A DNA stretch of 63,252 bases, filler included, from Folioceros fuciformis (lineage: Eukaryota), in assembly GCA_049999805.1 (NCBI GenBank). It is 15 parts of 15 records of this genome, joined end to end, with 100 filler letters (N's around TTAATTAATTAA, not from the genome) between each part and the next. Parts side by side here need not be neighbours in the genome. Positions count along the whole stretch, not along the records: positions 43,514 to 47,306 come from JBNGIO010002228.1; 14 more parts are not named here. One strand, given 5' to 3'. A program made the position numbers and the translations under genes. Under the pieces are notes generated by a model, which was not told the origin of the DNA, ran no database searches, and saw only the letters and a program-made list of their open reading frames with translations. This document shows, in pieces, positions 72 through 59,117 of this stretch. Within the stretch, counting starts at the first letter, position 1. Every line of letters begins with the position of its first letter.

Positions 72-571
72 CTACAATCTTAGACTTATGTCAGGATCGG
101 CTGAGGTAGGTGCACGCGTCTCCGACTCTGGCTTGTGATCTGATTCCGAACAGGCTCGTGTGCGGGATTCTGACGGCTTCGATAGCTGTGATAACAAAGT
201 GTTAATATGTTCCAGAGATTTGCAGAAGGTATTTCTTACGGCGTCCACAGCATCAACTAAGTCCTCGAGTTGAAGACAGAGGGCTCCGTGATGCCTGCCT
301 TCATGAATTGCCTCGGACTTAGTCAGGTATGTCAATTCTAGCAACCGATCCACCTTGACCTGGAGATCTTGGATTGCCTGCTGATCTAGAGAGCTTTCCC
401 TTGCATGACTGAAAGGACAACGCGCTCTGTATTTAGAAAGCGCCTGTGCTGCTGCTGCCGGCTCTAGGTACGGTTGAACTCTTCAGCCCGTGCGAGCCAA
501 TCAAGATTGTAAGTTCTTGGAGTTCTTCGTGATCCGTGACTTCGAGTCCAGCTAAACGTGTCGTGTGACAT
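72..571 (-). pseudogene. ORF0 (extra 5' ORF) of copia element, one frameshift near 480
   Basis: ATG at 571 gives MSHDTF..PRTYNLDWLARAEEF. A second frame is open from 482 to 72 (QQAIQDLQVKVDRLLELTY..LQLEDLVDAVDAVRNTF), helical or heptad-like. Confidence 0.5.
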
Positions 572-18815: not shown

Positions 18816-18850
18816 TCCTATGAAGGTAAATTGGCCTTTAAATGGGAGGT

Positions 18851-26694: not shown

Positions 26695-26842
26695 CCTAAC
26701 TCGGTTAAACTCGCGACTTTTGGGTTTAGCAAACTTAACACCATAAAAGCTACAATTTTGTATTAATTAAATTAAGTTCTTTTACTGCATTATCTCAATT
26801 ATTGCTTGTTAAGATAGTTTTGAACAAATGCATAAAATAACA
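26695..26842 (+). repeat. 5' LTR (first 37 bp or so missing)
   Basis: 6 substitutions in 148 bp versus the 3' LTR; ends in CA directly before the PBS. Confidence 0.93.
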
Positions 26843-26991
26843 TGGTATCAGAGCTCTCGATGCTCTGAGTCTTCCGCTGTACTACTCCTACATATGTTTA
26901 TTGCAATGTGATTGCAAAAATGTTGGGTTTAGTGTGTCTATTCTGGTGTCCTAGCAATCACATATGACAGACATAATAGACTCATGTTCCT

Positions 26992-27561: not shown

Positions 27562-27913
27562 AGGGGTGTGAGAGACAGCCTGCGAATCTACAATTTGTTG
27601 CCCTGGAGCTCTCAACAGGCACTACTAGTGGTTGCGCCTGCTGGCTGGAGTATCTAGGTGTCGTAGATGTCCTTGCGGTCTTCCTAATTCATGCTTGGGT
27701 CACGTCCCTTGCATTCTGAGAATGTCTGCAGGCACAAACGGTTATTCGTTAGAAGCCGTGTGACATGCTTAGGGTTTGTTGAAACGTTATTCATTTAAAA
27801 AAAAAAAAACTTGAAACTTAAAACTTAAAACTTGAAGAGGCATTTAAGTTTTAGGACTTACCATTTCAACTCTCTTATGGAGTCTTTCTGTTTTTCTCCA
27901 CATTCAGTAGAGC

Positions 27914-30900
27914 ATGTCCCTTTTTGCTGCAGATACTGACTCTGATAGTGATACTGATCAACTCTCCTGGCTTTTCCCAAATCCTTCAACTCCTTCGCTC
28001 TCTCCTGGTGTCACTATGACTACAGGTCAAGGACCCATGTCTATATCTGTAGGGTCATCATACTACGGTGAGTTCAAGGAAAAAGACAGGTTCGATGGAA
28101 AAGCATCACGCTTTGAAAGCTGGAAAGCACGAATGAGAGCTAACCTTGATGCTCGCGACGTTCTGGAGTATGTTGATGGCAGTATACCGAACCCTTTCCT
28201 TGTACCAGCTACAGCTGCAATTCAGCCTATGCCTGATGACAAGGCAAAGTGGAAGAAATGCAACAAGGTTGCATTTGCTATTCTTTTGTCTGGCCTGGAT
28301 GAGACCACAGTTACTGAAGTGGATTCACTGGAATCAGCCGAAGCTGTGTGGAAGCAACTTCATGACACTTATCAGGTCAGAAACATATGTACCATGATCA
28401 ATGCAAGAAACGACTTCCACAGTTTGAGGTTGAGGGAGGGGGAACCAGTTGGTGCTCATGTCACCAAGTTGAGGCACCTGCGAGCACTGCTTGCTGCGCT
28501 AGGTACCAAGATTACTGAAGTGGAGTTGACAGCACAACTGTTGACCAGCCTGCCCTCATCCTATCAATCCTTTATTTCCAGCCAAAATGCCACTTTGCGT
28601 GATGCCTACTCAGCAGCAGCAAGTGGCCAACCTTCTACACTCAACCTGAATGATATAGTTGGGGCCCTCCTGCAAGAGGAGCAGAGCCGCCAACGCTCTC
28701 ACTCTGGTTCAAGGCTGCGTGGTGAAAAAGTTCTTCTTGCTGAAAAAGGCAAGCAACAATGGAAGGGGAAGGACAATAGTAAAAAGAATTCTTCAAACAC
28801 TTATGTTACCTCTTCCTCCACCACTAAGCGCACAGGCAGTTGCAACTAGTGCCAGATTCCTGGGCACTGGGAACGTGACTGTAGAAAGAAGAAAGCTGGA
28901 GAGCCGAAAGAGATGGTTAGATCAGAGGCCCATGTTTCGTCTAAGGAAGCAAAACCTCAGAATGGCCAACAAAAACCTTGAAGCAGCAGTTCTGTACTCA
29001 CAGTTTGTCTGACTTCGACTACTGAGAACACACAGCATTGGTTTGTTGATTCGGGAGCAACTTCTCACGTCTGCAACAATCAACAAATGTTTTCTTCTTT
29101 TAACAGTCTGCAAACCCCTCAGTCTGTTTTTGTGGGTGATGCACAAGGCATTGAGGTAAAAGGGATAGGTATAGTAGACATACCACTTCTTGATGGCTCC
29201 TTTTTACATCTTCAGGAAGTCCTGTTTGTACCAACAATGAGTAGTAACTTATTATCTGTTAGAGCCATTTCTAGAATGAATAGATATGGTTTTCGTTTTG
29301 AAAATAGTACATGCTACATGTATCCCCTTACCTACCCAAAGAAGATTCTAGCCAAGGCGGTCTTAGTACACGATCTTTATCAACCGGTTCAGGAGTCTAA
29401 GTCGCGCACCAGAGTCCTTCTTGCTTCATCCAATGACAAGGCTAACCTGTGGCATTCGAGGTTGGGCCATGTAAACAAGTCGAAGTTGGATTTTATGTCG
29501 AACTCCACATTCTACAGAGAGAAGCTCCCTAGTTGTTTCAAGCATTTATCAGCCTGCTCCTCCTGCATACTATCTAAACAAAAAGAATTGCCTTTCAAGA
29601 ATAAACAACCAACCAGAGCAACTGCTGTTCTTGAACTTGTGCACGCTGATATTGCTGGAAAGCTGCCTGTGAAGTCCCTTGGTGGAGTAGAGTATTATCT
29701 CTCCTTGCCTGACGATTTTTCTCGCTATACTTGGAGCTTTCCTATCAGGCTAAAGAGTGATGTGTTCGAACACATCTCCTCCTGGATCCTCATGGTCTAG
29801 AGACAGACTGGACGTCTTGTCAGATGCTTCCGGACTGATAATGGAGGGGAGTTCATTGGTCATCGGTTTGATGACCTTTTCCAAGCTTATGGTATTCTTC
29901 GTCAGCTGTCTGTGCCCTATACACAACAACAGAATGGTGTTGCTGAGCGGAAAAATCAAACTTTGATGGGCATGACCCGCAGCATGCTCTCATGGGCTAA
30001 CTTACCTAAATCTCTCTGGGCAGAAGCCGTGGTGACAGCTACTTACATTTTGAATCGCCTTGTTACTTCAGCTCTGCCTGATTGTACCCCTTATGAAGCA
30101 TTCTGGGGTCGCAAACCAAGCTTGCTTCACTTGAGGGTCTTTGGGTCACCAGCCTTTGCTTTTGTTCCTAAAGCCAAGAGGGGAAGCTAGATGATAGGTC
30201 TCGACCCTCCATCTTTGTTGGCTATTCAGAGGAATCTAAAGCCTATAAGTTGTATGACCCTAAGACTTCCAAGATTACACTAGCCCGTAGTGTTACCTTC
30301 AAGGAGTTCTTGACTCCTCAAATAGATTCCTTGTCTACCACTCTTGAGAGTATACCTGCTGATACAAAGTCCACACAAGAATACCCACAATCAGATGGTG
30401 ATGTAGCAGTTGACGCATTCTTACAACCATTAAATGGTCAACCAGACCCACCTTTAGCACCTGGAGTTGGTATACCTCCTGTAGATCCGGATCCTCTCGT
30501 TGCTGAGCACCATGAGGGGGATTACCAATATAATGAGGAGCAGCCAGGTGGTTTTGAAGACTCGCATATCAGTGAAACTCCTAGTGATGGTGTATTGTCA
30601 GATCGTGATGAGACTGTTGATGCTGATCCTCCTCCTCGCTATCCTGTAAGGATGAGAAGATCACGAGAGTTATGGGATGAGCCACCCTATCAGTCTGAGG
30701 ATTTCAGGAGACATACTGCAGACAATGTAACAGACTTGTATGTACCTGATGTCAGACCTGATCCTCGAACACTTGATGAAGCACTGACTGGTCCTGATGG
30801 GGCTCATTGGCGAGTGGCTGTGAATGATGAGTATAATAGTCTCCTCAAAAACCAGACGTGGGAGCTAGCTGATCTGCCACCAGGCAGGAAACCTATTACC

Positions 30901-32355
30901 TGTAAATGGGTTTTTAAGACTAAACTAAAGTCAGATGGAACTATAGCAAGATACAAGAGCAGACTGGTGGCAAGAGGGTTCTCACAGATTCTTGGCATAG
31001 ACTATGGAGATACCTTCTCTCCCGTAGTGAAACCTCCGTCTGTCAGGATCCTTCTTGCACTTGCTGCCGAGTTTGACCTTGAACTCCATCAAATGGATGT
31101 TTGCACGGCCTTCCTACATGGAGAACTGGAAGAGGTTCTTTACATGAACCAACCAGAAGGGTTTGTTAGTAAGAAATGGCCAGGAAAAGTATGTAAACTT
31201 TTGAAGACAATCTATGGTTTGAAACAAAGTCCTAGAGCCTGGTACAAACGAATTATGAAATTCCTGTGTAAGGCAGGCTTCTCACAATCATCAGCAGACT
31301 CAAATGTCTTCTACTTATCTGAGTCTGAGTTGTTTGTCATCCTGGCTTTGTATGTTGACGATGCTATCTTATTAAGTAACAGCATGTCGCAAATGAACAA
31401 GGTTAAGGATCTTCTGAGGAGTGAATTTGAAATGACAGACCAGGGTGCCCTTCAGTTCTACTTGGGCATCTAGATACTCAGAAACAGGCAAGAAGGAACT
31501 ATTGTTCTTCATCAGTCAAAGTACCTTAAGGAAATACTTAAAAGATTTCACCTGGATGAAGCACGTCCTGTAACCACCCCTTCAGTGGTGGGTGAGAAGT
31601 TATCAGTTGACATGTCCCCTTAGTCTGCAGATGAAGAAAAGGATATGGCTGGCATTCCTTAAGCAGAGGCAGTTGGGTGCCTTATTTTCCTGGCAAACAG
31701 GACTAGACCAGATATAAGCTTCTCTGTTAGTATGGTAGCTCAGTTTATAAAGACTCCAGGTCGAGTCCACTGGGCTGCAGTCAAACGTATCTATCGGTAT
31801 CTAAAGGGAACAGTTAATCTAGGCCTTCACTATACTGCCAGTAGGAAGAAAAGCTTTGTTCTGACAGCTCTAGCTGATGCTGACTGGGCATCAGATTCAA
31901 ACACTCGTAAGAGTCTGTCTGCCTACGTATGTTTGCTAGCTTCTGGTGCTGTCAATTGGTCAGGTAAAAAGCAGTCCTCATTAGCCCTGTCATCTACTGA
32001 GGCTGAATACAAGGCCCTAACAGATGCCTGCAAGGAACTTGAATGGGAAAGACAGTTTTTAGAATCCATCTTTATGACACAAACCTGTGCAACTCAACTT
32101 CTATGTGATAATATGTCTGCTATAGCCCTAGTGGCTAATCCCCATTTCCATGCAAGGACAAAGCACATAGAGCTCTATCACCACGACATTAGGGACGTGG
32201 TGGAAAGAGGTGTGGCTAAGGTGGAATATGTAAGCACAGATGAAAATACAGCAGACCTACTGACAAAAGGACTTTCTAAGGTCAAGCACTATAAGCATCT
32301 GGCCTCTATGGGCTTAAGGGTATTTGCTATGCCGGTACGAAAGAGTATAGTATAA
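27914..32355 (+). pseudogene. Copia gag-pol pseudogene
   Basis: FKEKDRFDG gag, zinc knuckle, WFVDSGAT, rve, YVDD, ADADWA; several TAG/TAA stops and a frameshift. Confidence 0.95.
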
Positions 32356-32551
32356 TATGTGTGCTCTGCTAACAGGAAATGACCTAGGCGATTTACTACA
32401 GAGTTGCCTTTCCTGTCCAGCACACAAGCCATGAGGACAGTTCAGTGGATGAAGCAACCTGCATATTCAGTCGTGAACTGTTCTCTACATCAGCATAAAG
32501 CAAAGAAAAACTTAACAGCAGTCAGTTACCTCTCTCAGGCAGGCAAGGGGC

Positions 32552-32941
32552 TTAGCTATCATTAGCTTCGTGTACACCGCCGACTGCTCCATTATACCCT
32601 AGCGTGTTCAGTTCCTTCACTAGGTGCTGTATTTCACACTCTAACAATGGAAACATGGTCGGATCTCGTTGAGGGAATCTGGCGACCAGGTCTCGAAGCT
32701 CCAGGACCCGACATTTCGCAGCCATGACTGCTTCTTCAACCTCTTCGCACTTCTGAGCAGTTTGAAGCAGATGGCACACCAAGTTTTTGTCTGACTGTGT
32801 AGGCCACTCTGCAAGCGTCTTCGATGTGTGAGTCTCGCCAGGCTCAACAGAGTTGCTATGCTGCCGTGAGGACTCTTCCCTTGGACGCTTCTGACAACTC
32901 AAGCCGCCACCCCTCTTGCGTGCCATCTCTCCCTGCACCAA
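32552..32941 (-). CDS. Antisense ORF in the 3' region of the copia element, unknown helical protein
   Basis: 129 open codons between pol and the PPT; amphipathic C-terminal half; no recognised family. Confidence 0.4.
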   Translation of the reverse strand: MVQGEMARKRGGGLSCQKRPREESSRQHSNSVEPGETHTSKTLAEWPTQSDKNLVCHLLQTAQKCEEVEEAVMAAKCRVLELRDLVARFPQRDPTMFPLLECEIQHLVKELNTLGYNGAVGGVHEANDS

Positions 32942-33205
32942 AACACAGAAGACTGAGAACTTCCTACGTAGTGAGTGTTCTTATCCTTGGTATTGTGAGA
33001 GCCAGTCACCACGATTCTTCAGCCTGCTCTGAGCCTTCAAGCCTCTTCTTGTCTGAAGCTGGATCGTCCGTCATGCTCCCTTCATGATCTCCTTGCTTGT
33101 GCCACACAACAACTTCGCACGGTTGCCTCATCATGAGGGGGTGACGAGGATTATGGCCCGTTAGGGTTTAAGCACTTACTTTAACCTCGCAAGGTTAAGA
33201 GGGGG

Positions 33206-33390
33206 TGTTAAGGTTATTTTAGATAACCATTGGTTATATTAACCTAACTCGGTTAAACTCGTGACTTTTGGGTTTAGCAAACTTAACACTATAAAAGCTA
33301 CAATTTCGTATTAATTAAATTAAGTTCTTTTACTACATTATCTCAATTATTCCTTGTCAAGATAGTTTTGAACAAATGCATAAAATAACA
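33206..33390 (+). repeat. 3' LTR (185 bp)
   Basis: TGTTA...TAACA, preceded by the PPT. Confidence 0.95.
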
Positions 33391-34329: not shown

Positions 34330-36570
34330 TCAAAGGTAATCAGACGTGTATGTATTGTGTGGCACCTGGATGGATGGGCGCTGGGCCGAATGAGCTTGTG
34401 GGTGGTTGCAATTGAGTCGTCTCATGTGCTCTAGCCCAGGTACTTCGGCAACTGGCCTACTAGCTGGGGGCAATGACATTTGTTGCGAGCTGGGTAGATG
34501 CAGCGTGCGATTGATGGGACAGTGCTTTGGGAGCCCTGCCAGACTGAGTGCTGGCAATGCAGTTTAGAAGGGGCTGATAATCAATGTGTGTTGACTGGTA
34601 GGGATGTTTGTTGCATGCGAGCTGGCTAGGTTGGACCAGTGTGTTTCGGTGTGGCATTCACAGGCGTGGATGGTGTGGTTGTTAATACTATGTGTGTTAG
34701 GTGGTGCAAGGACGCTGAGCTTGCATATTGGGATACGAGTGCGCACACGAATTGGAAGGTGTTGATCACAAGTCGGACAGTCGGATTTGGTAGGCCTTCG
34801 CGCCAGGGCCTTCCTTGTTTCCCTTGGACAAGTTTTGGCATTTGAATCGATGTACGCTGGGCACATGTGGCTGGCGGGTGGTCGCGAGTGAGTCGTCTCG
34901 TGTGCTCAAGCCCAGGTACTTCGCGAACAGGCCTACTAGCTAGGGGCAATGGCGTTTGTGCGAGGATAGATGCTGTGACTGCTGGGCTCGTTCCTTGGAG
35001 AGCAGCCTTCACTAGTGCTGGCAGTGTTGAATTAAGAGCTGATGCTCCATGTTTGCTGAGCTGGATGGATGGTTTGTTGTACATTAGCGAGTGAGTTTGT
35101 TTGTTGTATGGGCAGTCGTGGGTGGTGTGGTCGCTGAGAACATGCGTGTTGCAAGGACGCTGAGCTTGCATGATCGGATACGCGTGCGCACACGAATTGG
35201 GAGTTGTTGACTCCAAGTCGGGCAGGCGGATTTCGTAGCCCTTTGGACCGAGTCCTTCCTTGTCTGCCTCTGATCAGTTTGGCATTTGGATGGATGGTCG
35301 CTGAGCAGACGTGGCTTGCGGGTGGTTGCGATTGAGTGGTCTTTTGTGCCCAAGCCCAGGTACTTTGGGAACAGGCCTAGTAGCTATGGGCAATGGCATT
35401 TGCGCAAGGCGACATACTGTGTTCGCGGGGCTATTGCGTTGGGAGCAGTAGCAGGGCTGGCAGGGTAGAGTGAGCTTATGATCCATGTGTGTCGAGTGGG
35501 ATGGATGGTTGTTGCATGTTGGCTGGCTGGGTTGGGCCAGTGTGTTCCTGTGTAGCATTGACAGGCGTGGATGGTGTGGTTGTTGATACCATGTGTGTTG
35601 GGTGGTGCAAGGACGGTGAGCTTGCATTATCGGATACGCGTGCGCTCACGAATTGGACGGTGGTGATCCCAAGTCGGACAGGCCTTCCTCGTTTCCCTTG
35701 GATCAAACTGGCATTTGGATCGATGGGCGCTGGGCAAGCGTGGCTTGCGGGTGGTTGAGAGTGAGTCGTCTCGTATGCTCAAGCCCAGGTACTATGCGAA
35801 CATGCCTACCAGCTAGGGGCAATGGCATTTGTGCGAGGATATATGCTGTGACTGCTGAGCTCGTTCTTTGGAGAGCAGCCTCCTCTAGTGCTGGCAGTGT
35901 TGAATTAAGAGCTGAAGTTCCATGTTTGTTGAGTGGGATGGATAGTCGTTGCACATTAGCGAGTGAGTTTTGTGTGTTGTATTGGCAGGCGTGGGTGGTG
36001 TTGTCGCTGAGAGCATGTGTTTTGCAAGGACGCTGTGCATGCATTATCAGTCACGCGTACGCACACGAATTGGGAGGTGGTGATTCCAAGTCGGACTGTC
36101 GGATTTGGGGGCTTCGGGCCGAGTCCTTCCTTGTTTCCGTTTGACCAGTTTAGCATTTGGATGGATGGTCGCTGGGCAGATTTGGTGTGGGTGGTTGCGA
36201 GTGAGTCGTCCCTTGTGCCCAAGCCCAGGTACTTTGGCACCAGGCCTACCAGCTAGGGCCAATGACACTTGTGCGAGGATCCATGCTGTGATAGTTGTAG
36301 CCGGGCCGGGAGTGTAGAGTGAGCTGATGATATACTTGTGTCGAGAGGGATGCATGGTGCATGTTTGTATGTTGGCTTGGTGAGTTTTTTGGGTAGCATT
36401 GGCAGGCGTGGGTGGTGGGGTTGCTGATAACATTTGTGTGGGGTGCTGCAAGGTAGCTGTGCTTTGCGCAATCAGATACCCGTGCGCGCACGAATTGGGA
36501 GGTGAGATCCCAAGTCGGGCACGCAGACTCGGCAGTCTGACCTTCGGATGGAGGCCTTCCTTGTTTCTCT
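34330..36570. repeat. Tandem repeat of about 430-475 bp units, five copies
   Basis: Anchor AGCCCAGGTACT at about 34433, 34909, 35353, 35782 and 36222; CACGAATTGG and CAAGTCGG also recur. Confidence 0.9.
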
Positions 36571-36655
36571 TTGGTCATCAGCTGAGTAGCGAGATTCATG
36601 GTGGCGGTGGTGGTGTAGTCGTGAGGAGGTGGGGCAGCGGTAGCGGTGTGAAGGC

Positions 36656-41029: not shown

Positions 41030-43413
41030 GAAGTGTAATCTGGTGGGGTCTGGGCTCGTGTGTTGTGACGGAAACTTGTAAATGGGGACCAGCTGGTTGC
41101 TAGCCTTGCTGTTGAAGGTGGAGTGTCGGGGTCGAAGTTGACTTCCACAAAGTCCTGAGCTTGCTCCTGCCTCTTGGCTGCCCTCCTCTGTTGTGTGTAT
41201 GCACGTCTAGGTGGGGTGCTTTGTCCAGGGATGTCACGGGATCTCAGTCTATAACAAGGACTGGTCCCATGCTCCTTAGGTTGCATTCCCCCATAAACAT
41301 GCACAACAAACAACAAGTCAGCTAGCTAGGCTGGAAGAGGAAAAGAAGGCAAGCCAATACTGCATTCACGCTTGCTGCTAGAGCTAGAAAACCAAACCAA
41401 TCCACAACTGTGAAATGCAAAAGTCACAGCTTCAAAAAAGGACTTGTAGGGAGCCGGTCTAAAAGCTAAGCTAAGAGCTAAGCTACACGTAATGAAAGAC
41501 CTCAAATATCACTGTCCACGAGAGCCCTAGCCCCTATGCTGCAACAAGAGGAGTGTTGGCTGCAAATAGCCAACATGCCCTAACTGAAACCCTAGGTGAC
41601 CAACTCCTCCAAGGCATTTAGTCCCTGTATTTCACTCTAAATTGAACAAAAATTATACCAATGGCTTTGTCTCAGTGAGGCAAACAATCTAGTATGCAAA
41701 TTGAAAGCAACCGACCTCTGAAACCGACGCTACAAACTCTGGAAGGTTGGGAAAGCTTGCTGCAGTTGAACTGCTGTTGTTGCTGCTAGCACGATTGGGG
41801 CGTGTGGGTGATGCTGCCTTGCTGTAATTGCGTGGCCACCTCCACCTAGCTCATTCGCTCCCACATCTTGCTTCCCTGTCCAGATTGAGATAGTTGTTGA
41901 AGTGAAGAGATTGTAGCAAAACCTTGCAGCAATTTGGGTTTGAAAGGAGCTACGTGACACACGCAGCTTGGTGAGTGAATAAGTTACGCCATGGACTGCA
42001 ACACTGGAATCAAAGGCGCTGAAAACGTTCTTCATCCTAGCTCCCAATTCGAGAGAACACAAAAACATGGTTTGAGCTGCCTTCCCCCAGTTACAGTGCT
42101 GCGCGGCGCAACTTCAACAACCATCGACTTCTGCCCTGGCTGCCCCTTTTGCCTAACGCCAGCCATCTTCATGATCCAACGTCCAGCTGAGTTGGCTTCA
42201 CGCCCTTGCATCAGCACTGCTCCTTGCATGATGCCTTGCTAGCGTACCCTAAGTTCTGTTGTTTCCCCACGTTGCCACGTTGGGCAGCAGGGTTACACCA
42301 ACAACAAGTTGGGAAATACCCAACATGCGTTCAGACTCAACTTGCCTAGAAACATCTAGCTATTTCTAAGCTAGTTTGCGAAATATCTACCTAAGCTAAG
42401 TTCATTTATCCTAGCATTTAAAACATATATTTGCTATCCTATTCTAAACAACATTGGCTGAGGGTTTCTTACCTAATCGGCGGTCACCTTCATGACAAGG
42501 CTCCATACGACACCTTCCTCAACCCCACAATCTAGCTGCTCGTCTCCCTACGACCAACAAGTTTCCCTCCGAGCCTGCTCAGCTCCCTCCAACTGTGTTT
42601 ATCGTTCACCTACGACATTCAACCTTCCCTATCTCATACCTTCAACACGTCCAATCGGTAGGAAGGCACCATTCCTTCACTTGGAAGGGCCCCAGTACCT
42701 CCCCCTACCGACTTCCAACTACCTACACCCACCACCTCTCCCCACAAGTCTCCTCACAACACCTTTCACACCATCCAACTCCACGTCTCCCTACATCCAA
42801 CGACCAACAAGTTTTTCCTTGGGCCGGTTGCTGCGTGCTTGTGCCTGTTAGCAAGAACTTCAAGGGAGTCTTTCCCTAGAGTCTACCCTCAAGCCAACAG
42901 TCACACAAGTATTGCCACACACCTACAGCAGCACAACAACCATTCACAAGGGAAGCAACTTGCAGGGGTGCCCAGGAAAAATATGAACCTTCCGCCAAGC
43001 ACTTCGACCACTACAACTCTAGCCACAACCAAATGCTGTGATGGCACACAGCCGGCAACAAGATTCCTATGCTCTGCTGAGCATGAGAACTCGCCATGAG
43101 AAGAGTGCGGAATGTGGTGGTTCATTTCTTTGTGTAGCCCCTCTTTATAGGAGAGATCGACACATGAACCCTCTACTCCATGTAGGTGGTGGGCTACTCT
43201 TCTCTCATACTAGGCGCCACCAACTTTAACTGCACACACCTACCAAGAGGCTAAGTCCTACCAATAATTGTTAGGGCAGTGCGTGCCGCTAAAGATTCGG
43301 ATTGTCGGCCATAGAAGATTCGCTGACCCTCTCTCTAAAAAGGTGTGGCTAGGACTGCTCCTGAAGGGAGGCAGAGTCTGAAGGTTGAGCTACTGGGCCC
43401 CCCTCCATTATTG
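41030..43413. repeat. Unclassified dispersed element
   Basis: 41878-42170 matches 5690-5990; 42805-43413 matches 50675-51270. Confidence 0.65.
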
Positions 43414-43513
43414 NNNNNNNNNNNNNNNNNNNNNNNNNNNNNNNNNNNNNNNNNNNNTTAATTAATTAANNNNNNNNNNNNNNNNNNNNNNNNNNNNNNN
43501 NNNNNNNNNNNNN

Positions 43514-43720
43514 TTCTCCCAAGTTGAGTTGATGAGATCTTCTCTCTGGAAGAGGAGATGCCTAGCCTGGAGGAGGATTTGTCCAGTTGTGACGTTGGCC
43601 GTGTGGAAGCACACAACGTCGGCTCACTTGATGTTGAACTTGTTGTGGATGATTCGTGTTTAGTCTACTCACAAATTGTGAGAGAGCATCATTAGGACGC
43701 TGCCCACGCCTCCGTGTCAT
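43514..43720 (-). pseudogene. ORF0 N-terminus (not in the ORF track), one TAG
   Basis: MTRRRGQRPNDALSQFVSRLNTNHPQQVQHQVSRRCVLPHGQRHNWTNPPPG*ASPLPERRSHQLNLGE aligns to the ORF0 starting at 48541. Confidence 0.7.
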
Positions 43721-44085
43721 TCTGAAGATTCAACAGACTCATTTACAATCCCATTTAGTTTAGATTATGCTAACACTATCTAGAGTGCAGGCAGAGATAA
43801 GTTACTGGTCACACAATCGCACATTTTCTGAGAAAGAAATTTGTGCATTATGTGAACAGCTAAATTATCTATGTTGGCACAATTCTAGAATCAAGATAGA
43901 TCAAATATAGCTGGTGCTCTGATACCATGCTACTAATTGCGGAAGTGAACTTTGTACAAAAGTATTAAAATGATAATAAAGGAAAGCATCCTTTAAATAC
44001 AAAATTGTGTGTGTGTCTTTTGGGTTAATTAAGTAACCTCTAGCTAAACTAAGCCATAAGCTATGTTAGGGTTTTATATCCAACA
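43514..44085 (-). mobile_element. Copia 5' end: LTR 43928-44085, PBS 43916-43927, start of ORF0
   Basis: LTR and leader are homologous to 48490-48923 (TGCTACTAATTGCGGAAG). Confidence 0.85.
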
Positions 44086-45292: not shown

Positions 45293-46634
45293 TGACGGGT
45301 GGTATTGGGGACGAATCGGTGGGGGTTCTCACCGAGTGGAAGGCAAACTTCCCCTCTATTCCCGGTAATTCGCGTTGTGTGTCGCTGTAGAAGTGAAGGG
45401 GAACGAATCCACCCACTGTGCGGAGTGAAGGGAGAACGATCCTTCCCTTATTCCCTGAATCAATGAATTGTGGCATGTGGTTGAGGTGAGGGGGACGAAT
45501 CCGCCCATAAGCGGAGTGGAAGGGGTGCCGGCTTCCCTTATTCCCTGACTCTTCAACCACTCCTCCAATACAGTGATGAGAGTGAGTGGAAGTGAAGACT
45601 GACTGTGCGTTGTAGTTGAGGGAGGGAAACGAATCCGCCCAATAAGCGGAGTGGAGGGAGCTTTCCTCCTTCCCTTATTTCCCCACTGTCGGCTGCAACC
45701 TGGCCCTAGTGTTGGTGTGAGTGAGTGTTGAGATATGATCGTGTAAGAAGGTGAGAAGTGAAGGAACGAGTGAGTCGAGACGAGAAGGAGTGAGTAACGC
45801 CGTGCTTGCAGAGAGGGGAACGAATCCACCGACTGCGGAGTGGAAGGAGCGTCTCTCCTTCCCTTATTTCCCGAACTGTTGGCTGCGGATGGGTGTGCTG
45901 CGAGACTGAGTGTTTGACAAGAGAGTTAAGGTTGCAACGAGGTTGTCGAAGAATCCCTAAAGAGACTTCGGGTGCTGGGAAATGCTGTTAAGAGATAGTG
46001 GTGCGAGGGACGATTGAGAAACCGCTTGGGAAATCGTGGATATTGCTGAGGGTTGAAGCGAGCTTGCGAGGAGCGACTGTACACCGAAGTTTGGCGTGTG
46101 TTGGAAGCGCGGTGTGGGTGTGAAGCGTGAGGTGTAATCATCCTATGGAACCGGGTTGTCTAAGTGTGTATCTGTGGTTGTGAGGAGTGTTTAATAACCC
46201 CAACCCACGACTCTTGGGGATCTAGGTAGAAACCCGTGAGTAGAAACCCGCGGTGGTACTTGTGTCGACATGTGTTAGTTAGGACCTTGGGTGGGACCCA
46301 CCACGGTAGCAGAATCCGCCACCGATTGTGGAAACCCCAACCAGTCGTAGAGGAGATAGTGGTCGTGGAGACCCCAACCCCGGTTGTAGAGTAGGGACTA
46401 GAGTCGTAGAGTAGGGTCCGTGGTAGCTAGGCTAATTGAGGGGTAGTGGTACTTGAATTGGCAGGTAGTAGAAGTGGTAGGGGATAAGGTCGAATCTACG
46501 TAAGAGCCAGTAGTAGAAGAAACCTGTGATACTCAGCACATATCATTCCCTTGGGATCGAATCCCACGGCTACAACAACATAGAGGGTTTGTGTGGACCT
46601 CGCGGTGTCCTCAGACACAATATTTTCCTCCACA
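45293..46634 (+). repeat. Long LTR-like repeat (about 1.34 kb, Ty3/Athila-like)
   Basis: Starts TGACGGGT (as at 62354) and ends TGGGATCGAATCCC..TATTTTCCTCCACA (as at about 5580); abuts a truncated Harbinger transposase; no clean TSD. Confidence 0.55.
45307..45872 (+). repeat. Array of five roughly 60-nt structured (three-way junction) units with unique spacers
   Basis: Units at about 45307, 45397, 45488, 45622 and 45813: GGGGA-CGAA-hairpin-GT-hairpin-CTTA-TTCCC. Confidence 0.8.
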
Positions 46635-47306
46635 CTAGAGCTAACAACTTCAAAGTTCAAGCACCTCACAGGTCTACCGAATATGGTTGGAGCTATAGAT
46701 GGTTCTCACATCAAGCTCGCTACACAACCTAATAAGATAGATAACCCAGGTGCATACTGGTGTCGTCATGATATTCACTCTATTGTACTACAAGGCGTAT
46801 GTGATGCTGATAAAAAATTCATTGATGTATGTTGCACTCATTCTAGTGGAGTTCATGATGCTACAATTTTGAGGGAGAGTAGCATATGGGAGAAGATGAA
46901 GACGGGTGTTATTTTAAGAGACCCTATTCTACATATCGAGGATATTGAAATGGCTCCATATATCTTAGGTGACAGTGTTTACCCATTAATGCCTTTCCTC
47001 ATAAAACCATTTTATGCAACAGGTGAAGATCGGACTAAAAAACATTTCAATTGGTCCTTGAGAAGGAGAAAAGTGAAAGTGGAAAATGCTTTTGCCTTAT
47101 TGAAAAATAAATGGCGTGTTCTAAAGAATAATAATATGCGTTTGAAGTATGCTCCGCAGGTTGTTATCGCTTGTTGCGCACTTCATAATTTTTGTATACA
47201 AGTTGGAGAGTTAGAAGCACGACAATATGATGAAGACCCATTTCCACTACATGAAACTAAGTGTAATCATACTTGGGAGGCTCTTGCAGAGCGTCAGATG
47301 CACAAC
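46635..47306 (+). mobile_element. PIF/Harbinger transposase (DDE_Tnp_4, HARBI1-like), partial
   Basis: GAIDGSHI, SIVLQGVCD, HDATILRES, ILGDSVYPL, VENAFALLKNKWRVL, ACCALHNFC. Confidence 0.93.
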
Positions 47307-47406
47307 NNNNNNNNNNNNNNNNNNNNNNNNNNNNNNNNNNNNNNNNNNNNTTAATTAATTAANNNNNNNNNNNNNNNNNNNNNNNNNNNNNNNNNNNNNN
47401 NNNNNN

Positions 47407-48923
47407 AGGTAAGCTTGCATCCGGGCTCTCCAACTTTCATAGTTGATAGACTTGCCATCAAAACAATCTTTTTCTTCAAATTCTCCAGCATAGTTACCAG
47501 CTCCAGTAGTTGTAGTCATACTGATAATTGGTGGTGCTGAAGTAGATATGAATGGAGGAGGATTGAATGCAGGAAACTGAGTTTGCAGGGATTGGACAAA
47601 CGCAAGTTCAGTTGCTAAGTCCTCATCTAGATCACTATCTGAGTCCGAAGATAACCAGCTAAGGCCAAACGACATGGAAGAAAGCGAAACGACATTAAAG
47701 GAAGGTATGTGACGTTTTGCCTAAAACCGACACACTTAGGGTTAGATATGAAAGTATCTAAATTATCATGAAATGTTGCAGATGAACGCGTTGCAGTGAC
47801 AAGTGGCAGAGCTCAGCAACCGCCATTTCTGATGAAGAGTACCGATTGAGATCTGCCAGCGTGCCCTCTCTCCAGCACTGCAACTCACGTGATCCCCCTC
47901 CAATTCTGGAGCGAGAGATCACTTTGCGCAGGGCGTCGTTACAGATCTGGCTGTCCACACGTCAGCGCCATGTACAGATCCTCACGAATGTGCAGAGAGC
48001 TCAGCAAATTAGTGGCAGCCTGATGTGACTGCGGCACTGAAGTAGTCACGGATCCAATTTCCAAGCGCTCAAGTCTCTCTGACTGAAACGAGAGTGAATT
48101 CTGCACACCGCGAATCAGGGTCTGTACCAACATCAAGCGTTCACCCTATTGCAGCAACAGAGACTGCTGCCGACGAATTTGAGTAAGAATCGATCCCTCT
48201 GAGTTGGTGATGCTTGATCGTAGTCCCTCCGACCTGAACTCAATCATGGAATCAAGGGTATCGAACCCTTCATTAGTTTCTGAATACGTTGGAGAATCTG
48301 ACCGCCTTGGTCTGTCGTGGGTATTGCAGGGAGGCGGAGACGGAGCTCTATCCCCTAAGTTGAGCTGATAAGGCCTGCGCACAGATGGTCGAGGTGTCCA
48401 CTGCTCTTGCTGGCCTTGAGGAAACCGGTGCCCACCACGATTGTTTCCTTGCCGCTCAACTTGGTGTGTTCGACTCCTGTGTTGTCTGGTCACAAATTGT
48501 GACGAAGACTCCTCGGGACGTCATCCACCTCTCCGCACCATTCATACACACAACACAGACTCATTTATGTATTCATCTCATAGTTTGTAGAAAATACTGA
48601 TGATCTCTAGAGTGCACACAGAGATGCCTTAGTAGCCACATAATCAAACATTTCTCAAGAAGAGATTTGTTCATTTTGTGGTTAGGTAAAACATCTATGT
48701 ATGCAGTATCCTAGAATCAAAGAGAATACAAATGGATCAAGTAAACTGGTGCTATGATACCATGCTACTAATTGCGGAAGCGAGCTTTGTAAAAGCATCA
48801 ATTAATTAAATAAAAAGGAAAGTGTCCTTTAAATACAAAATTGTATAGTGACTTTTGGGTTAAGTATTTAACCTCTGATTAGCAGCTAGGGTATTAAATA
48901 TGTTAGGTTTCTTACTCCTAACA
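47407..48923 (-). mobile_element. Copia 5' end: LTR 48763-48923, PBS 48751-48762, ORF0, gag start at 47675
   Basis: PBS TGGTATCATAGC; gag EFEEKDCFDGK..YESWRARM is homologous to the gag at 27914. Confidence 0.9.
47939..48541 (-). pseudogene. ORF0, about 200 codons, two internal stops
   Basis: ATG at 48541 (MVRRGG*RPEESSSQFVTRQ) is in frame with ORFs 48146-48493 and 47939-48136; helical C-terminal half. Confidence 0.7.
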
Positions 48924-50674: not shown

Positions 50675-51270
50675 CCAACAAGTTTTTCCTTGGGCCGGTT
50701 GTTGCGTGCTTGTGCTTGTTAGCGAGAACTTCCAGGGAGTCTTTCCCTGGAGTCTACACTCAAGCCAACAGTCACAAAGGTATTGCCACACACCTATAGC
50801 AGCACAACAACCATTTACAAGGGAAGCAACTTGCAAGGGTGCCCATGGAAGAATATAAGCCCTCTTCCAAGCACTTCGACCACTGTAACTCTAGCCACAA
50901 CCAGGCGCTAAGATGGCACACAGTCGGCAACGAGATTCCTACGCTCTGTTGAGCATGAGAACTCGCCATGAGAAGAGTGCAGAATGTGGTGCTTATAGGA
51001 GAGATCAACACATGAACCCTCTCCTACATGTAGGTGATGGGCTACCCTTCTCTCACACTAGGCACCACCAAACTTTAACTGCGCACACCTACGAAGAAGC
51101 TAAGTCCTACCAATAATTGCTAGGGCAGTGCTCGCCGCTGAAGATTAGGACTATCGGCGCTGCCATAGAAGATTCGTTGACCCTCTCTCAAAAAAGGTGT
51201 GGCTAGGACTGCTCCTGAAGCTAGGGAGAGTCTGAAGGTTGAGCTATTGGACCTCCCTCTGTTATTGGGA
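50675..51270. repeat. Second copy of the unclassified dispersed element
   Basis: Aligns to 42805-43413. Confidence 0.85.
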
Positions 51271-53726: not shown

Positions 53727-56700
53727 CCTGGCGCTCCTCATCTGTCTGTGGACACTGATCATGAGAAAGCTTCAATCCTGCAACTCCAGGAGTAGACACG
53801 GGTTTAGCAGTGTCCAGGTGAAAACGGTGCAGGGTTTCAGCAATATATTTAGCTTGATGAAGCATAAGGGAGCCAGCTTCTAGATCACGAACAAGTTGGA
53901 CACCGAGGACAAAGGTAAGAGCTCCAATGTCTTTCATGTCAAACTTCTGATGGAGCATGTCTTTGACCCAAGATAACAAGCCTGGATCGTTGGATGCGAG
54001 AATGGCATCGTCGACATACAAAGCGAGAACCACGAGAGTACCATCCTTGTTGTAAAAATACACGTTGGCATCACCAGGGTTTTGAATGAAGCCGATGGAT
54101 TTAAGGTACTTGTCAATTGTTTTGTACCACTCCCGTGCTGATTGTTTTAACCCATAAATGGTCTTCTTAAGATGGCAGACCCAATCTGGATGCTCGGGGT
54201 CCACAAAACCCTCAGGCTGCGACATATAGATGTCCTCTTCCAGCTCACCGTAGAGGAAAGCTGTGCAGACATCCATCTGCTGGAGGTCCCAAGCGTTGGC
54301 TGCAGCTAGAGCAAGTATCATACGAATAGACTGGGTCTTTACCACAGGACTGAAAGTCTCTGTGAAGTCAATACCTGGAATCTGGGTGAAACCCCTAGCC
54401 ACAAGCCGAGACTTATATCGAGCAATCTCACCCTGGGCATTCAATTTGTGCTTGAAGACCCACTTGCAGCTGACAACTTTCCGACCTTTAGGTAAGGGGC
54501 ACAATTCCCATGTATCGTTCTTTATCAAGGAGTCATACTCATCCTTGATCGAGGGGATCCAGTGTGCCTTGTCAGCACCCGTGATTGCCTCCCGATATGA
54601 CTTAGGTTCAGGCTTGATGAAGAGTGGATTGCTCACAGAAGACTTGGATTTTGGCAGGGTTACTCCAGCTCTAGGGCGTCGAAAGTCAATAGAAGCATAT
54701 GGGGGTTCTGTCCACTGGGCGGGAGGATTCCTGGTGCGCTGAGGATAGCGACGTTCTTCAGGCTGTACAGCTAGAGGAACTTCAGCCACATCGTCATCAT
54801 CAGTAACGGGACCAGGTAAATTGTCATTCAAATCAGAATCAGTAGAGTGGACAGAAATATCTTCTGCAGCGAGATCATTTTCAGCCTCATCCTCTGCTGC
54901 AGGCTGTTCCCTGACATCATTAGTATCAGAAGCCTGGTCTTCTTGAACCAAGTGAGCAGGCGGTGCTACATGAGCAGCTGGATCAGGAGCCTGAAAATCT
55001 GGTACAGCAGGGTCATTGGCCTGTGGATGTGCAGGACCCGCTCCAGGGTGTTGCACGGCTGCAGGAACCTCAATGAGCACAACTCCAGGTGTGTCGTCTT
55101 GTGGAAATTCGGATGAATCTTCCATGTTTGTCAAGTCCACATGAGTGACTCTTTCACTGTTGTCTGACAGGTGATCAAAATATGGCTTGGCAGGACACAC
55201 AAGTTCTTTGAAGGTCACGCTTCTGGCAAAGACTGCTGTCGAAGTAAGTGGATCAAGCAACTTATAAGCTTTAGCCTCTTCCCCATAACCCACAAAAACA
55301 AGTGGGCGTGCTCTATCTTCTAACTTTCGTCGCCGCTCTTCAGGGATATATGCATATGCTGGGGAGCCGAATACCCGCAGATGCAGCAGGCTCGGCTTTC
55401 TTCGCCATATTACCTCAAACGGAGTTTGTCCATCCACAGCGCTTGTAAGAAGCCTGTTAAGGAGATAAGTTGCTGTAACCACTGCCTCTGCCCAGTATGC
55501 TTTGCTTAAACCTGCCCATTCTAACATGCTTCTTGTCATTCCTAGCAGAGTCTGGTTACGACGTTCAGCAACGCCGTTCTGTTGCTGAGTATACGGTACA
55601 ATCAACTGTCGTACAACTCCCTTTTCCAGCAGGAACTGGTTGAAGTGGGCATGGGTAAATTCTCCCCCGTTGTCAGTACGAAGCTGTTGTAGCAAGCATC
55701 CAGTCTGCCTCTCCGCCATCACCAACCATTCCTGAAAGATCTCAAACGTATCGGACTTCAACCGGAGAGGGTATGTCCAAGAGTATCTACTAAAGTCGTT
55801 AGTAATGGTAAGGTAATATAGGGCACCACCTAAAGAGGGGACATGAATCTTGCCTGAAATGTCCGCATGTACTAACTCTAGTACCTGTGATGCACGATGA
55901 GCCACTGATTTAGGAAAAGGAATTTCCTTTTGCTTGGCTATGACGCAGGCATCACAAAGAGGTAGGTCTTTAAAACATTTTGGCAAGGGCTCTCTATAGC
56001 AGTTCAAGTTCGACATTTTTATCAACTTGTCTCTATTAGCATGACCTAGTCTAGCATGCCATAAACTGGCTTGGGCAGACTGTGATAAGTGAGCGGCATG
56101 CACAGACTCAGGGGGAATGCATGTGAGATCAAGCTGGTACAAGTCATGAAAAAGATGTCCTTTACCTACGACCTGTCCATCCCCCCCTCGCTTCTTAAGT
56201 TCACAACTATGAGAAGTGAAGAGGAGGTCGTACTCTCTAGAAGACATTAATTGACTAACTGAAAGGAGGTGCTTGGCCATGAGGGGAACATGCAGGACGT
56301 TGTCAAGATGGAGGATGGACCCATCGTGCAACCGGAAACGACATGTGCCTGACCCAGCAATGTGCAGACCTGTACGGGTAAGTTCATCTCCCAGCAAAAC
56401 CTTATCAGACGTATGAGAAGGTCGATAGTGACTTAGCAAACTTCTGTCGTTACAGATATGGGAGGTTGCCCCAGAATCTAAGTACCAACTATGAGGGGAA
56501 GGAGGACCTGCAGACGATGCAAAACAAACGGTCATGACGACAGGAGGTTTGTTAGCAGTTGATGAAGGCTTAGCGACAGTGTGGGCCTCAGCCTGCTTAG
56601 GCTTCTCGACCTTACGAGCTTCGCCAGCTTTCTTTTTTCTGCAGTTCCTCTCCCAGTGGCCCTGGATGCCACACCAATTGCAGGATCCAGGCCGCTTGCT

Positions 56701-57558
56701 GGAAGAAGGTCCAGAAGGTGAGTCACCAGGAGTGGGTCTACCCTTCTGTCCTTTATGCTGCTTCTGTCCTTTAGTATAAAGAACCTTGTCTGTTTTTGTT
56801 TTTCCACCCTGTGGTGTATAATGAAGTCTGCTTTGCTCCTCTTGCAGGAGAGCACCGATCACGTCCATAAGGCTGATTTGTGGTGCTTTGCCAGCAGCTA
56901 CAGCTTTGTCTGCCGCGCGAATGGAAGCACCAAAGCCGGAAACAAAGGTCTGGTAGCTGGGTGGTAGGCAAGTGAGGAGTTGAGCGACTGCATCCAACTC
57001 CGGAAACTGAGATCCTAGGTTCAGAAGCTGGGCCCTTAGTTGGCGAAACTTCAAGACGAAAGGTCCCACCTTCTCGCCTTCTCTAAGTCTCATTGAAAAC
57101 AGCTCTCCACGGATTGCACACTGTGTAAGTATGTTCTTTGCCTCGTACGTTTGCAGCAATTGTGTCCAGATTTCGTTGGAGTCTGGTAGGTAAGCCACAT
57201 CGGGCAAAAGGACTTCATCAAGACCACTAATCAAGACCGCACGAGCAACGTGGTTCAGGTTGTCCCACTTCTCTATCTCATCCACTGGAGCTCCTGCAGC
57301 TGGTTTAGGGAGTGTGCCACTAACCACATTCCACACGTGCCGAGCTTGCAGGGCAGCGGTCATTCGCACACGCCATCCATGGAACTTGGAGCCATTGAAA
57401 CGGTCCTTCTCTTTAAATTCCATGGAGAAGGATGGTGCAGGTATCACTGGCACTGGTGGAAGAGATGGAACTCCTCCACCGCCACCTCCAGCACCCCCTC
57501 CGCCTCCAGCTCCAGCACCCCCTCCTCCTCCACCTCCAGCGCCCCCTCCTGTAGCCAT
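53727..57558 (-). CDS. Copia gag-pol polyprotein (partial, more than 1270 aa)
   Basis: Poly-Gly N-terminus, FKEKDRFNG, CNWCGIQGHWERNC, WYLDSGAT, rve, YVDD; no stops. Confidence 0.97.
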
Positions 57559-57902
57559 TCTGACTTACTTTGATAAGATTATCAGGTGCTCACGGGTGAT
57601 CAAGCCGATTGCATAAGGTACTCTTCTCGAGGTAGGTCGAGATGCTGTAGGAGGCTGACAGATGAAGCGTAGGAGAGGGGCACCAAGGGTCGGTGAAGAG
57701 GCGCGAGCCGCGAGGTCAGATGTCACGGGACACCACAGTGGGCGTCGGTTGACGGTTAGAGTCTGGAGATGGCTGACGTGGTGTGTCTTCGAGTGGCTGG
57801 GTGCAGAGTCGCATCCTGTGAGTTCTTGCTGCGAGCAGGCACCTGTAGGTCGAGGCGCCTCCCGCCAGAAAAACACAGCGAGCACGAATCTGCAGATGCG
57901 CC

Positions 57903-58463
57903 CTACCGCGCTGAAGGCGACGCATGGAATCTGGGCTTCTCACGGACAGGGTCCAGCGCATGGAGCAGAGCTGCTGCAGCAGGATACGGGCTCGAGTCGT
58001 GCACTGATTTGCGTTGCAATTCAGTCATGAGATCAGTGAGTTTCCTGACATCCTCTATCAGCGTCGTCTGTTTGCGCAGGAGTAGATCCACCGCTGCCAA
58101 GGTCTCTTGATGGCGCGCAGTGTGAACTTCGCCCTGTCGTGAAAGCACAGTGAATAAGGCCGATTCTGTGGTGTTCAACCTGTCATTCAGCACTCGGTAA
58201 GCTCCGACTATCTCCGGCAGGTTGGTAGCCCGAGATCGGAATGTTTCCCGCAAGTCGTCCTCTTGTGAGTCTCGAGATTTCGGATGTCTTTCAATATGCA
58301 CCCTGTTTGGAGTTCGAGAGAAATGCAATGTGTAAGGGATATCTTCCTGGCCTGCGTGATAATCTCGTACAGTCCTGGAAGCCTGATCCTGACGCCTAAT
58401 TGTGGGTCGACTGCAGGGTAACAAAGGTGTATGCTCGACGAGAGAAAGCCCCCGTCGAGTCAT
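57903..58463 (-). CDS. ORF0: intact 186-aa extra ORF upstream of gag, coiled-coil-like C-terminal half
   Basis: ATG start MTRRG; YRVLNDRLNTTESALFTVL and LAAVDLLLRKQTTLIEDVRKLTDLMTELQRK heptads; lies between PBS and gag. Confidence 0.7.
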   Translation of the reverse strand: MTRRGLSLVEHTPLLPCSRPTIRRQDQASRTVRDYHAGQEDIPYTLHFSRTPNRVHIERHPKSRDSQEDDLRETFRSRATNLPEIVGAYRVLNDRLNTTESALFTVLSRQGEVHTARHQETLAAVDLLLRKQTTLIEDVRKLTDLMTELQRKSVHDSSPYPAAAALLHALDPVREKPRFHASPSAR

Positions 58464-58747
58464 TTTATGATTAGAGTAGCATGATCTGCTGCGTTACGAC
58501 AGACAGATCCACACAGCAGAAGTCTCTTGTTTACTGTCATGCAGATTCTAAAACATATTACATTGCTAACGTGGTAATGTAGGTAGTGAGAAGGAATTTT
58601 AGACACACGATCCTAGAATCACAATTTCTGTGACTCATGGATTTTGTGTCCTATAATCCCCTTTTGCTACATGCACCTACCATAGCCGAGTATATTAATA
58701 CAGACAGTAAATCAGATCGTGTATCAAAGCCTAGTGCTCTGATACCA

Positions 58748-58946
58748 TGTTTCTAAATCAGATGTACTCATGCACGCAGGTGCTTGAAACAAAGTGAGTT
58801 ATGTTGTCATGAACATACAAAGTGTGTCTTATATATCAAAAACTGTCCAAGAGTCATGTCTATTCAAATTAACCTAGGTATAAATAACTATCAGCTAATA
58901 AGCTGCTACGTTTATACAAGAACCATAACGGGGTTCTCTTCTAACA
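58748..58946 (-). repeat. 5' LTR (199 bp)
   Basis: TGTT..AACA adjacent to the PBS. Confidence 0.85.
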
Positions 58947-59117
58947 GATGGTACGTAGACGGATTGTCCAGATCTCATACTCGCTCCCATTGAAGCGATC
59001 TCTATCCTTGAAGTCTACTTTGAAGTGTGTGACACTTGTGCGTACAGGTGCTTGTGGTTGCGGACCACCACCACCGCCACCACTCCCTCCTCCGCCTCCT
59101 CCCCCTCCACCGCCACC
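58947..59117 (-). pseudogene. N-terminus of a related copia gag, interrupted by the element above
   Basis: Minus strand reads poly-Gly-PQPQAPVRTSVTHFKVDFKDRDRFNGSEYEIWTIRLRTI. Confidence 0.85.

Follow-up and report, generated by a model that had tools for sequence, protein, structure and literature searches.

The window analyzed here, a 63,252-nt stretch of DNA from the Folioceros fuciformis assembly GCA_049999805.1, consists of 15 contigs spliced end to end, with N44-TTAATTAATTAA-N44 linkers at the 14 joints (4805-4904, 7750-7849 ... 61605-61704). The linkers carry stops in all six frames, and whatever spans a joint, be it an ORF, a distance between repeats, or synteny, is artificial; one listed ORF (46593-47354) extends into a linker. 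Two diverged copies of a small open reading frame, here called ORF0, lie on contig 10 (43514-47306) and contig 11 (47407-49213), one on each. Being on separate contigs, they are unlinked, and the ~5-kb spacing between them is an artifact. Position 43514 is the first base past a linker (N run 43470-43513), so that the contig-10 ORF0 ends there because the contig does, not for a biological reason. Coordinates of these copies, of their flanking features, and of three further ORF0s are collected in Table 1.

Table 1. Positions of ORF0 and associated element features along the window
Feature	Coordinates	Strand	Remarks
ORF0, contig 1, decayed	75..571	-	PBS 660-671; one in-frame stop and one frameshift near 437-422
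ORF0, contig 6	27001..27561	+	186 codons (27001-27558); one internal TGA, 27205-27207
ORF0, contig-10 copy	43514..43720	-	first 69 codons only; contig end cuts the frame
Leader, contig-10 copy	43721..43915	-	between PBS and ORF0 ATG
Primer binding site TGGTATCAGAGC, contig-10 copy	43916..43927	-	abuts LTR end ...GTAGCA
5' LTR, contig-10 copy	43928..44085	-	~158 nt, TGTTGG...GTAGCA
gag start, contig-11 copy	47407..47676	-	candidate ATG 47676 or 47518; runs into contig end
ORF0, contig-11 copy	47942..48541	-	200 codons, two in-frame stops
Primer binding site TGGTATCATAGC, contig-11 copy	48751..48762	-	1 mismatch
5' LTR, contig-11 copy	48763..48923	-	~161 nt, TGTTAGG...GTAGCA
gag-pol, contig 13, open	53727..57558	-	gag, protease barrel, integrase, RVT_2; runs into contig end
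ORF0, contig 13, intact	57903..58463	-	186 codons (58463-57906) plus TAG

The window is rich in Ty1/copia fragments, and its Pfam matches suggest a land plant. Outside the ORF0 regions, Pfam matches comprise many pieces of copia gag, integrase, and RVT_2, together with PPR repeat fragments (contig 12, 49424-50052), pieces of an LRR receptor-like gene in several frames (LRRNT_2 plus many LRRs; contig 5, 22978-26200, minus strand), and a fragment of a PIF/Harbinger-type transposase (DDE_Tnp_4, E 2e-24; Plant_tran), which closes contig 10 on the plus strand (46584-47306) at a distance of 2.5 kb from the ORF0 element. One copia family is present on both contig 3 and contig 5, in opposite orientations (9576-11134 versus 16766-18959, ~90-94% identity over ~1.6 kb), and 59-66-nt tandem repeats lie downstream of the contig-5 copia pol (19278-19902). 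On contig 7, GC-rich DNA at 34559-36600 contains ~440-nt repeats with 64-89% identity.

Both diverged ORF0 copies are on the minus strand. The contig-10 copy opens at ATG 43720 and runs to 43514; its translation begins MTRRRGQRPNDALSQFVSRL, and an in-frame TAG occupies codon 53 (43562-43564). The contig-11 copy opens at ATG 48541-48539, reads MVRRGG*RPEESSSQFVTRQ, is interrupted twice, at codon 7 by TGA (48521-48523) and at codon 132 by TAG (48146-48148), and terminates in TAA at 47939-47941. The peptides quoted in an earlier, sequence-only reading of this DNA are present from these two ATGs and their sequence is correct, but the dots used to abbreviate the contig-10 peptide concealed its stop at codon 53. 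Both copies are pseudogenes. The same reading had proposed tblastn for further copies; within the window, this search returned the two copies and none beyond them.

The host elements of the two copies appear to be short-LTR Ty1/copia retrotransposons, with ORF0 upstream of gag in sense orientation. They share the order ~160-nt LTR (TGTT...GTAGCA), primer binding site (PBS), leader of ~200 nt, and ORF0 ATG, the stretch between PBS and ATG being AT-rich and full of stops in both. The start of the contig-10 LTR was placed by alignment to the contig-11 copy, the contig-10 element having no 3' LTR for comparison. Directly after the LTR end ...GTAGCA, both copies continue with TGGTATCA(G/T)AGC, i.e., TGGTATCA(G/T)AGCACCAG, a tRNA-Met-type PBS that presumably pairs with tRNA-Met. 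The arrangement of an LTR ending in ...CA followed immediately by such a PBS is exact in contig 10 and has 1 mismatch in contig 11, and the motif occurs 12 times in the window against 5.2±2.4 expected. Pairing of this motif with the tRNA-Met 3' end is described for copia elements (PMC6317226). ORF0 occupies an unusually long leader, ~1.2 kb, 5' of gag. In contig 11, gag is in a different frame from ORF0, with its N-terminus ~860 nt 3' of the ORF0 ATG; the first ~90 codons, which are what the contig retains, match DUF4219 at 16.4 bits, under the Pfam cutoff of 27, and are 49% identical over 49 aa to the gag of contig 6 (E 6e-11). There is no gag on contig 10.

The sequence-only reading had held that ORF0 residues are retained even though the LTR and leader have visibly diverged. 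The DNA of ORF0, however, shows no more conservation than that of its flanks. A MAFFT alignment of the two copies gives identities of 121/163 (74%) at the 3' end of the LTR, 131/187 (70%) in the leader, and 115/193 (60%) in ORF0, and a pairwise aligner gives 77.9% for LTR plus PBS, 67.3% for the leader, and 66.7% for ORF0. Over both aligners, ORF0 is at 60-67%, the leader at 67-70%, and the LTR at 74-78%. Divergence no lower than in the noncoding leader was one half of the pattern that the same reading had named as evidence against coding selection, and it is what we find; the other half, an even spread of differences over codon positions, is not.

When the proposed codon comparison was run on a frame-blind DNA alignment, the differences fell 17/16/29 on first, second, and third positions over 62 codons, a third-position excess with a binomial p of 0.019. 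The in-frame BLOSUM62 sum was 150, against 92.7±19.1 for shuffled alignment columns, with 0-2 per 1000 shuffles reaching that value. None of eight control frames (two off-frames, three leader frames, and three LTR frames) gave p<0.05 on either the codon-position or the BLOSUM test. Neutral decay spread evenly over the sequence gives no third-position excess, and part of the divergence therefore probably arose under coding constraint; the signal is real but modest, and the rest of the divergence, stops included, would be postinsertion decay. The further claim that the frame survives indels depends on alignment settings. In a DNA-only alignment with stiff gap penalties, the internal gaps of ORF0 are 6, 3, and 18 nt, against 1, 5, and 1 nt in the leader and 1, 2, 1, and 1 nt in the LTR, but under laxer penalties some ORF0 gaps cease to be multiples of three.

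The alternative that survives best is that ORF0 is plain noncoding leader, in which DNA identity of ~67% brings the likeness of the peptides with it and the frames are open through an accident of base composition. In its favor, besides the lack of extra conservation and the stops in both copies, amino acid identity is 30/62 against 25.6±2.6 for shuffled columns (p 0.067), only 1.7 sd above them. The pN/pS ratio is 0.65 with a bootstrap confidence interval of 0.43-1.05 and is as low in 6.6% of column shuffles, and omega, at 0.54, is not significantly below 1. The earlier claim of coding selection is partly supported. A Smith-Waterman score of 112 for the two peptides exceeds that of shuffles (32.7±6.2; 0/300 reach it), an excess for which the DNA homology of the copies suffices. 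In two protein searches, moreover, no relatives of the contig-10/11 family were retrieved (0 hits; 0/1.84 billion representatives).

Stronger evidence for ORF0 than this pair comes from elements on contigs 13, 6, and 1, which emerged when ORFs were scanned downstream of every PBS-like site in the window. The pair had been put forward as the best evidence in the window, and that standing passes to the intact contig-13 ORF0 with its 70%-identical relative, joined by the frames at 27001-27558 and 571-75. The contig-13 ORF0 starts 273 nt past its PBS (58736-58747) and ends 345 nt ahead of the gag-pol ATG at 57558, from which a frame of more than 1270 codons is open. The contig-6 element has its PBS at 26843-26854 and gag from 27914. 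Both have copia-type gag together with the protease-integrase-RT domain order. Across all elements, ORF0 begins 150-285 nt after the PBS and spans 184-200 codons, and in all three elements that show both genes, ORF0 and gag are in different frames, separated by a spacer of 345-860 nt with gag-frame stops.

The contig-6 copia element is complete (26692-33390), with LTRs of ~150 nt that are 96% identical over 148 nt; its gag-pol is split into at least five frames, and an antisense ORF of 142 codons with no Pfam match (32552-32980) lies between pol and the 3' LTR. On contig 13, the ORF0-bearing element is inserted in the gag N-terminus of another copia copy (58944-59117, minus strand), and the interrupted gag starts with a glycine run, as does the contig-13 gag. 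On the plus strand of contig 12 (50273-50460), an exact PBS is followed 74 nt later by a 33-codon frame, MTKRKG..., and then by broken frames that overlap one another; these may be what is left of a fifth ORF0 in an advanced state of decay. Close by, the stretch 50675-51267 shares 86% identity with contig-9 DNA at 42804-43413.

In each of four elements, stops are fewer in the ORF0 frame than in the other five: 1 versus 2-7 in contig 10, 2 versus 6-11 in contig 11, 0 versus 6-8 in contig 13, and 1 versus 7-18 in contig 6. GC content is higher at first than at second codon positions in all five ORF0 frames and is flat or reversed in four noncoding controls; a known coding control, the contig-11 gag N-terminus, does not show GC1>GC2 either. 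A codon usage log-likelihood, for which 5048 copia gag-pol codons from the window served as the training set, ranked the ORF0 frame best of the three sense frames in 5/5 cases, but we rejected this measure as uninformative, given that its margins were tiny, an antisense frame scored higher in 4/5, and the contig-11 gag control failed.

Two database relatives, and only two, were found, both of ~185 aa and on contigs of 939 and 1209 nt. The first, P0001 (185 aa, intact), shares 70% identity with the contig-13 ORF0, and the two coincide in start and end; by region, identity is 75/91 (82%) in the helix described below, 39/64 (61%) at the N-terminus, and 16/31 (52%) in the tail. The second, P0003 (184 aa, intact), shares 57% identity with the contig-1 ORF0 across 118 aa. 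Both terminate exactly at the ends of the window ORF0s. These comparisons are at the protein level, and because the source collection consists of predicted ORFs, only intact external relatives could appear in it.

In intact relatives, the ORF0 product is predicted to be a soluble protein of ~185 aa, with a basic N-terminal third, probably disordered, followed by an amphipathic helix of ~75-90 residues. The AlphaFold model of the contig-13 protein, built on an alignment two sequences deep, has low confidence over residues 1-64, a helix at 65-80, and a single helix at 82-155 with pLDDT 84-96. The contig-11 model, with stops entered as X, is of low confidence (mean 53.7) and follows the same plan, with coil over 1-92 and helices to 194. 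A hydrophobic periodicity of 3.55-3.60 residues extends over 75-100 residues and is significant in five of the six sequences tested, contig 11 included (p 0.014), the exception being contig 6 (p 0.10). The first 64 residues carry a net charge of +5 to +8 in six of seven ORF0 sequences, and five of the seven (c13, P0001, c10, c11, and c6) start with M, one residue, and two or three R/K; P0003 and the contig-1 ORF0 begin MSHD. The usual transmembrane cutoff for 19-residue hydropathy is ~1.6, and no transmembrane segment was found in the seven sequences, whose maximum 19-residue Kyte-Doolittle means are 0.58-1.37. Searches for known folds and domains returned nothing usable: no ORF0 matched Pfam (sets of 8, 90, and 6 translated ORFs), Foldseek of the model against the PDB gave a best E of 0.78, the best sequence match in the PDB had an E of 0.34, and the ESM Atlas held no usable match for the contig-13 protein and, for P0003, only bacterial hypotheticals with a best score of 0.78. 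A homodimer prediction for contig-13 residues 62-160 (score 0.01, mark 0.32) is evidence neither way.

Set against these results, the purely noncoding reading can still point to the 3' half of the contig-13 ORF0, since the DNA there is GC-rich and several further frames in it also stay open over more than 100 codons. It does not account for a third-position and BLOSUM excess confined to the ORF0 frame, for frame-specific stop depletion in four elements, for the intact relatives in two other families, which have diverged yet start and stop identically, or for the long-range 3.6-residue periodicity of the products. It is disfavored by these frame-specific signals, and we regard it as unlikely.

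A second alternative, which we consider improbable, is that the conserved islands represent signals acting in cis in the RNA or DNA, such as packaging, dimerization, or protein-binding sites, rather than codons. The block encoding SQFV is a 13-nt palindrome, TCACAATTTGTGA, identical in both copies; the QV and QLNLG blocks of contig 11 form two arms of an inverted repeat, and when the contig-11 RNA is folded to minimum free energy, CCAAGUUGAGC pairs with GCUCAACUUAGG. The folds of the two copies are, however, not more stable than those of shuffled sequences (z -1.63, with 15/200 as good, and z -1.06, with 30/200), the long-range stem is absent from the contig-10 fold, no Rfam family matches, and RNA signals leave the three-base periodicity of the differences unexplained. 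Cis-acting signals and coding can coexist in this region. ARAGORN found no tRNAs and Rfam no families in the DNA searched.

Could ORF0 instead be an N-terminal extension or alternative start of Gag, reached by frameshifting, read-through, or splicing? In contig 13, the 124 codons ahead of the gag ATG are open in the gag frame, which thereby overlaps the end of ORF0 by 36 nt, and in contig 6 a pyrimidine tract and a CAG 8 nt before the gag ATG (27880-27916) were noticed by eye. But the frames of ORF0 and gag differ in 3/3 elements, with the stop-containing spacers given above, P0001 and P0003 have exactly the end points of the window ORF0s, and the 124-codon stretch has no codon-position GC pattern (0.59/0.58/0.57). 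An extension of Gag is disfavored by the frames, the spacers, and these ends, and we give it little credence. Capture of a host gene fragment by the element (transduction), a process documented for plant LTR retrotransposons (PMC7264820), is very improbable here, as no cellular homologue was found (0 Pfam matches and no PDB match with E<0.3), the only two database relatives are of ~185 aa, and the ORF sits at the same place in four element families.

How ORF0 and gag would both be translated is a problem for any reading in which each is a separate cistron. There are 7-8 ATGs ahead of the ORF0 ATG and 7-13 between it and gag, and simple scanning therefore accounts for translation of neither; given the intervening ATGs, ribosomes would have to reach gag by shunting or reinitiation, through an internal entry site, or on an alternative RNA. 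The pyrimidine tract and CAG before the contig-6 gag hint at a leader intron, a possible route to gag past ORF0. A splice-site-like GTAAGT, also noticed by eye, lies 12 nt before the contig-13 gag ATG (57559-57580). Depletion of ATGs between ORF0 and gag was considered as a sign of leaky scanning and dropped, since the counts of 7, 13, and 8 against 10.9±3.0, 16.8±3.8, and 13.3±3.2 expected are a trend only.

Homology among the ORF0 families is not demonstrable from their sequences. In cross-family Smith-Waterman comparisons, only 2/15 pairs beat 98% of shuffles, namely, contig 13 versus contig 11 (6/300 shuffles reach the score) and P0001 versus contig 1 (2/300). Leave-one-out profiles retrieved the omitted family in 0/4 cases, and a profile of the contig-13 ORF0 with P0001, run against six-frame translations of all 15 contigs, found its own locus only. 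The best cross-family signal, with a BLASTP E of 0.028, is S/T-R-x-x-E-[VI]-H-x-A-R-H-Q, which the contig-13 and contig-1 families share and carry in the same place; hhalign of these families, two sequences each, aligns a 17-residue stretch at equal positions with an E of 0.015 and a probability of 3%. Of the leader DNA, the PBS alone aligns across families. What the families have in common is position, length, basic start, and architecture, and such a shared layout without demonstrable sequence homology would fit the fast evolution reported for extra ORFs in general (PMC6317226). On these grounds, we infer that ORF0s from different families may have a common origin.

Extra ORFs of plant LTR retrotransposons are described as lineage specific, very fast evolving, and without conserved domains (PMC6317226, PMC7264820), and additional ORFs can sit upstream of gag (PMC7264820). 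ORF0 resembles the eORF-5'F class of Neumann et al. 2019 (aORFs in Vicient & Casacuberta 2020), a sense ORF between the 5' LTR and the polyprotein; that class is forward and unfused to the polyprotein, as is ORF0 in 3/3 elements showing both. The survey by Neumann et al. (REXdb) considered only ORFs of at least 250 codons (PMC6317226), a survey threshold and not a biological criterion, whereas ORF0 has 184-200 codons. For Ty1/copia, that survey reports 45 eORF groups, among which ORF0 may already figure, and highlights only the 3' ORF of SIRE (PMC6317226); unlike the latter, ORF0 lies 5' of gag and in short-LTR copia elements. Among the papers listed in our literature searches, judged largely by title and abstract, none appears to describe a copia leader ORF like ORF0.

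Small ORFs upstream of gag, sORF1 and sORF2, are also present in the Drosophila MDG1-group Ty3 elements (412 and mdg1), where they are conserved, have low dN/dS, and mediate cell-to-cell spread (PMC11952523). ORF0 is likewise a small sense ORF upstream of gag and accessory to gag-pol, but sORF2 is a ~70-aa transmembrane FAST-like protein (PMC11952523), whereas ORF0 encodes ~185 aa with no hydrophobic segment (maximum 1.37). MDG1 elements belong to another superfamily and another host kingdom, and the likeness is one of description, not sequence. The rice elements Retrosat2, RIRE3, and RIRE8 are members of the Ty3/gypsy superfamily. They too carry an ORF0, which follows the 5' LTR, precedes the enzyme ORF, and has a reported identity of 7.6-90% between families; by description, it shares with ours the name, the place, and the strong divergence between families, but these elements have LTRs of >3 kb and another internal organization, and their ORF0 is described as grass specific (PMC3485330).

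In summary, ORF0 is a real but decayed accessory ORF in contigs 10 and 11. The explanation we favor, and think probable as a whole, is that the two stretches are the 5' parts of pseudogenized copies of a small accessory gene, once translated and selected, that would form a separate sense cistron in the ~1.2-kb leader, between the tRNA-Met PBS and gag, of a land-plant short-LTR Ty1/copia element. While the family was active, ORF0 would have been translated and kept under purifying selection, which would have been weak over the N-terminal part, the only part that the contig-10 stretch covers; after insertion, both copies would have decayed neutrally and gained stops. That the 69 codons of the contig-10 copy are this basic, weakly constrained part fits the weak signal of the pair.

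What the protein would do is a more tentative matter. The proposal of a nucleic acid-binding, oligomerizing accessory protein, which we hold as a possibility short of an even chance, draws on a layout comparable to that of coiled-coil accessory proteins of other retroelements. LINE-1 ORF1p and the small coiled-coil proteins of plant pararetroviruses combine a disordered or basic region with a long and fast-evolving coiled-coil-like helix, and their genes share an RNA with the polymerase gene and lie 5' of it. The likeness is one of architecture only, as ORF0 has neither an RRM nor another fold domain and no detectable similarity to them in sequence or fold, and oligomerization is conjectural. 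By this analogy, the basic tail may bind nucleic acid and the helix may oligomerize, making ORF0 an accessory factor that acts on the element's own RNA or virus-like particle. A bolder reading, likewise tentative, is that ORF0 is an ancient, fast-evolving, and required third gene of a short-LTR plant copia clade, with a basic tail and a coiled coil, and that the four families are its descendants. The protein would then be translated from the genomic RNA leader and act on element RNA or particle or against host silencing, and it would have been missed because surveys require 250 codons and annotated proteomes mask transposons.

Extra genes are common in LTR retrotransposons, and almost none has a known function; the small ORFs of Drosophila MDG1 elements show that such genes may be important (PMC11952523). 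For annotation, ORF0 would explain the ~1.2-kb "leader" of these elements. A leader ORF of ~185 codons that recurs in four copia families, intact copies included, offers a concrete candidate, open to testing, for an accessory protein of Ty1/copia elements, whose superfamily is commonly portrayed as having gag-pol alone. If the reading as an ancient gene is true, ORF0 would be a third gene of Ty1/copia elements.
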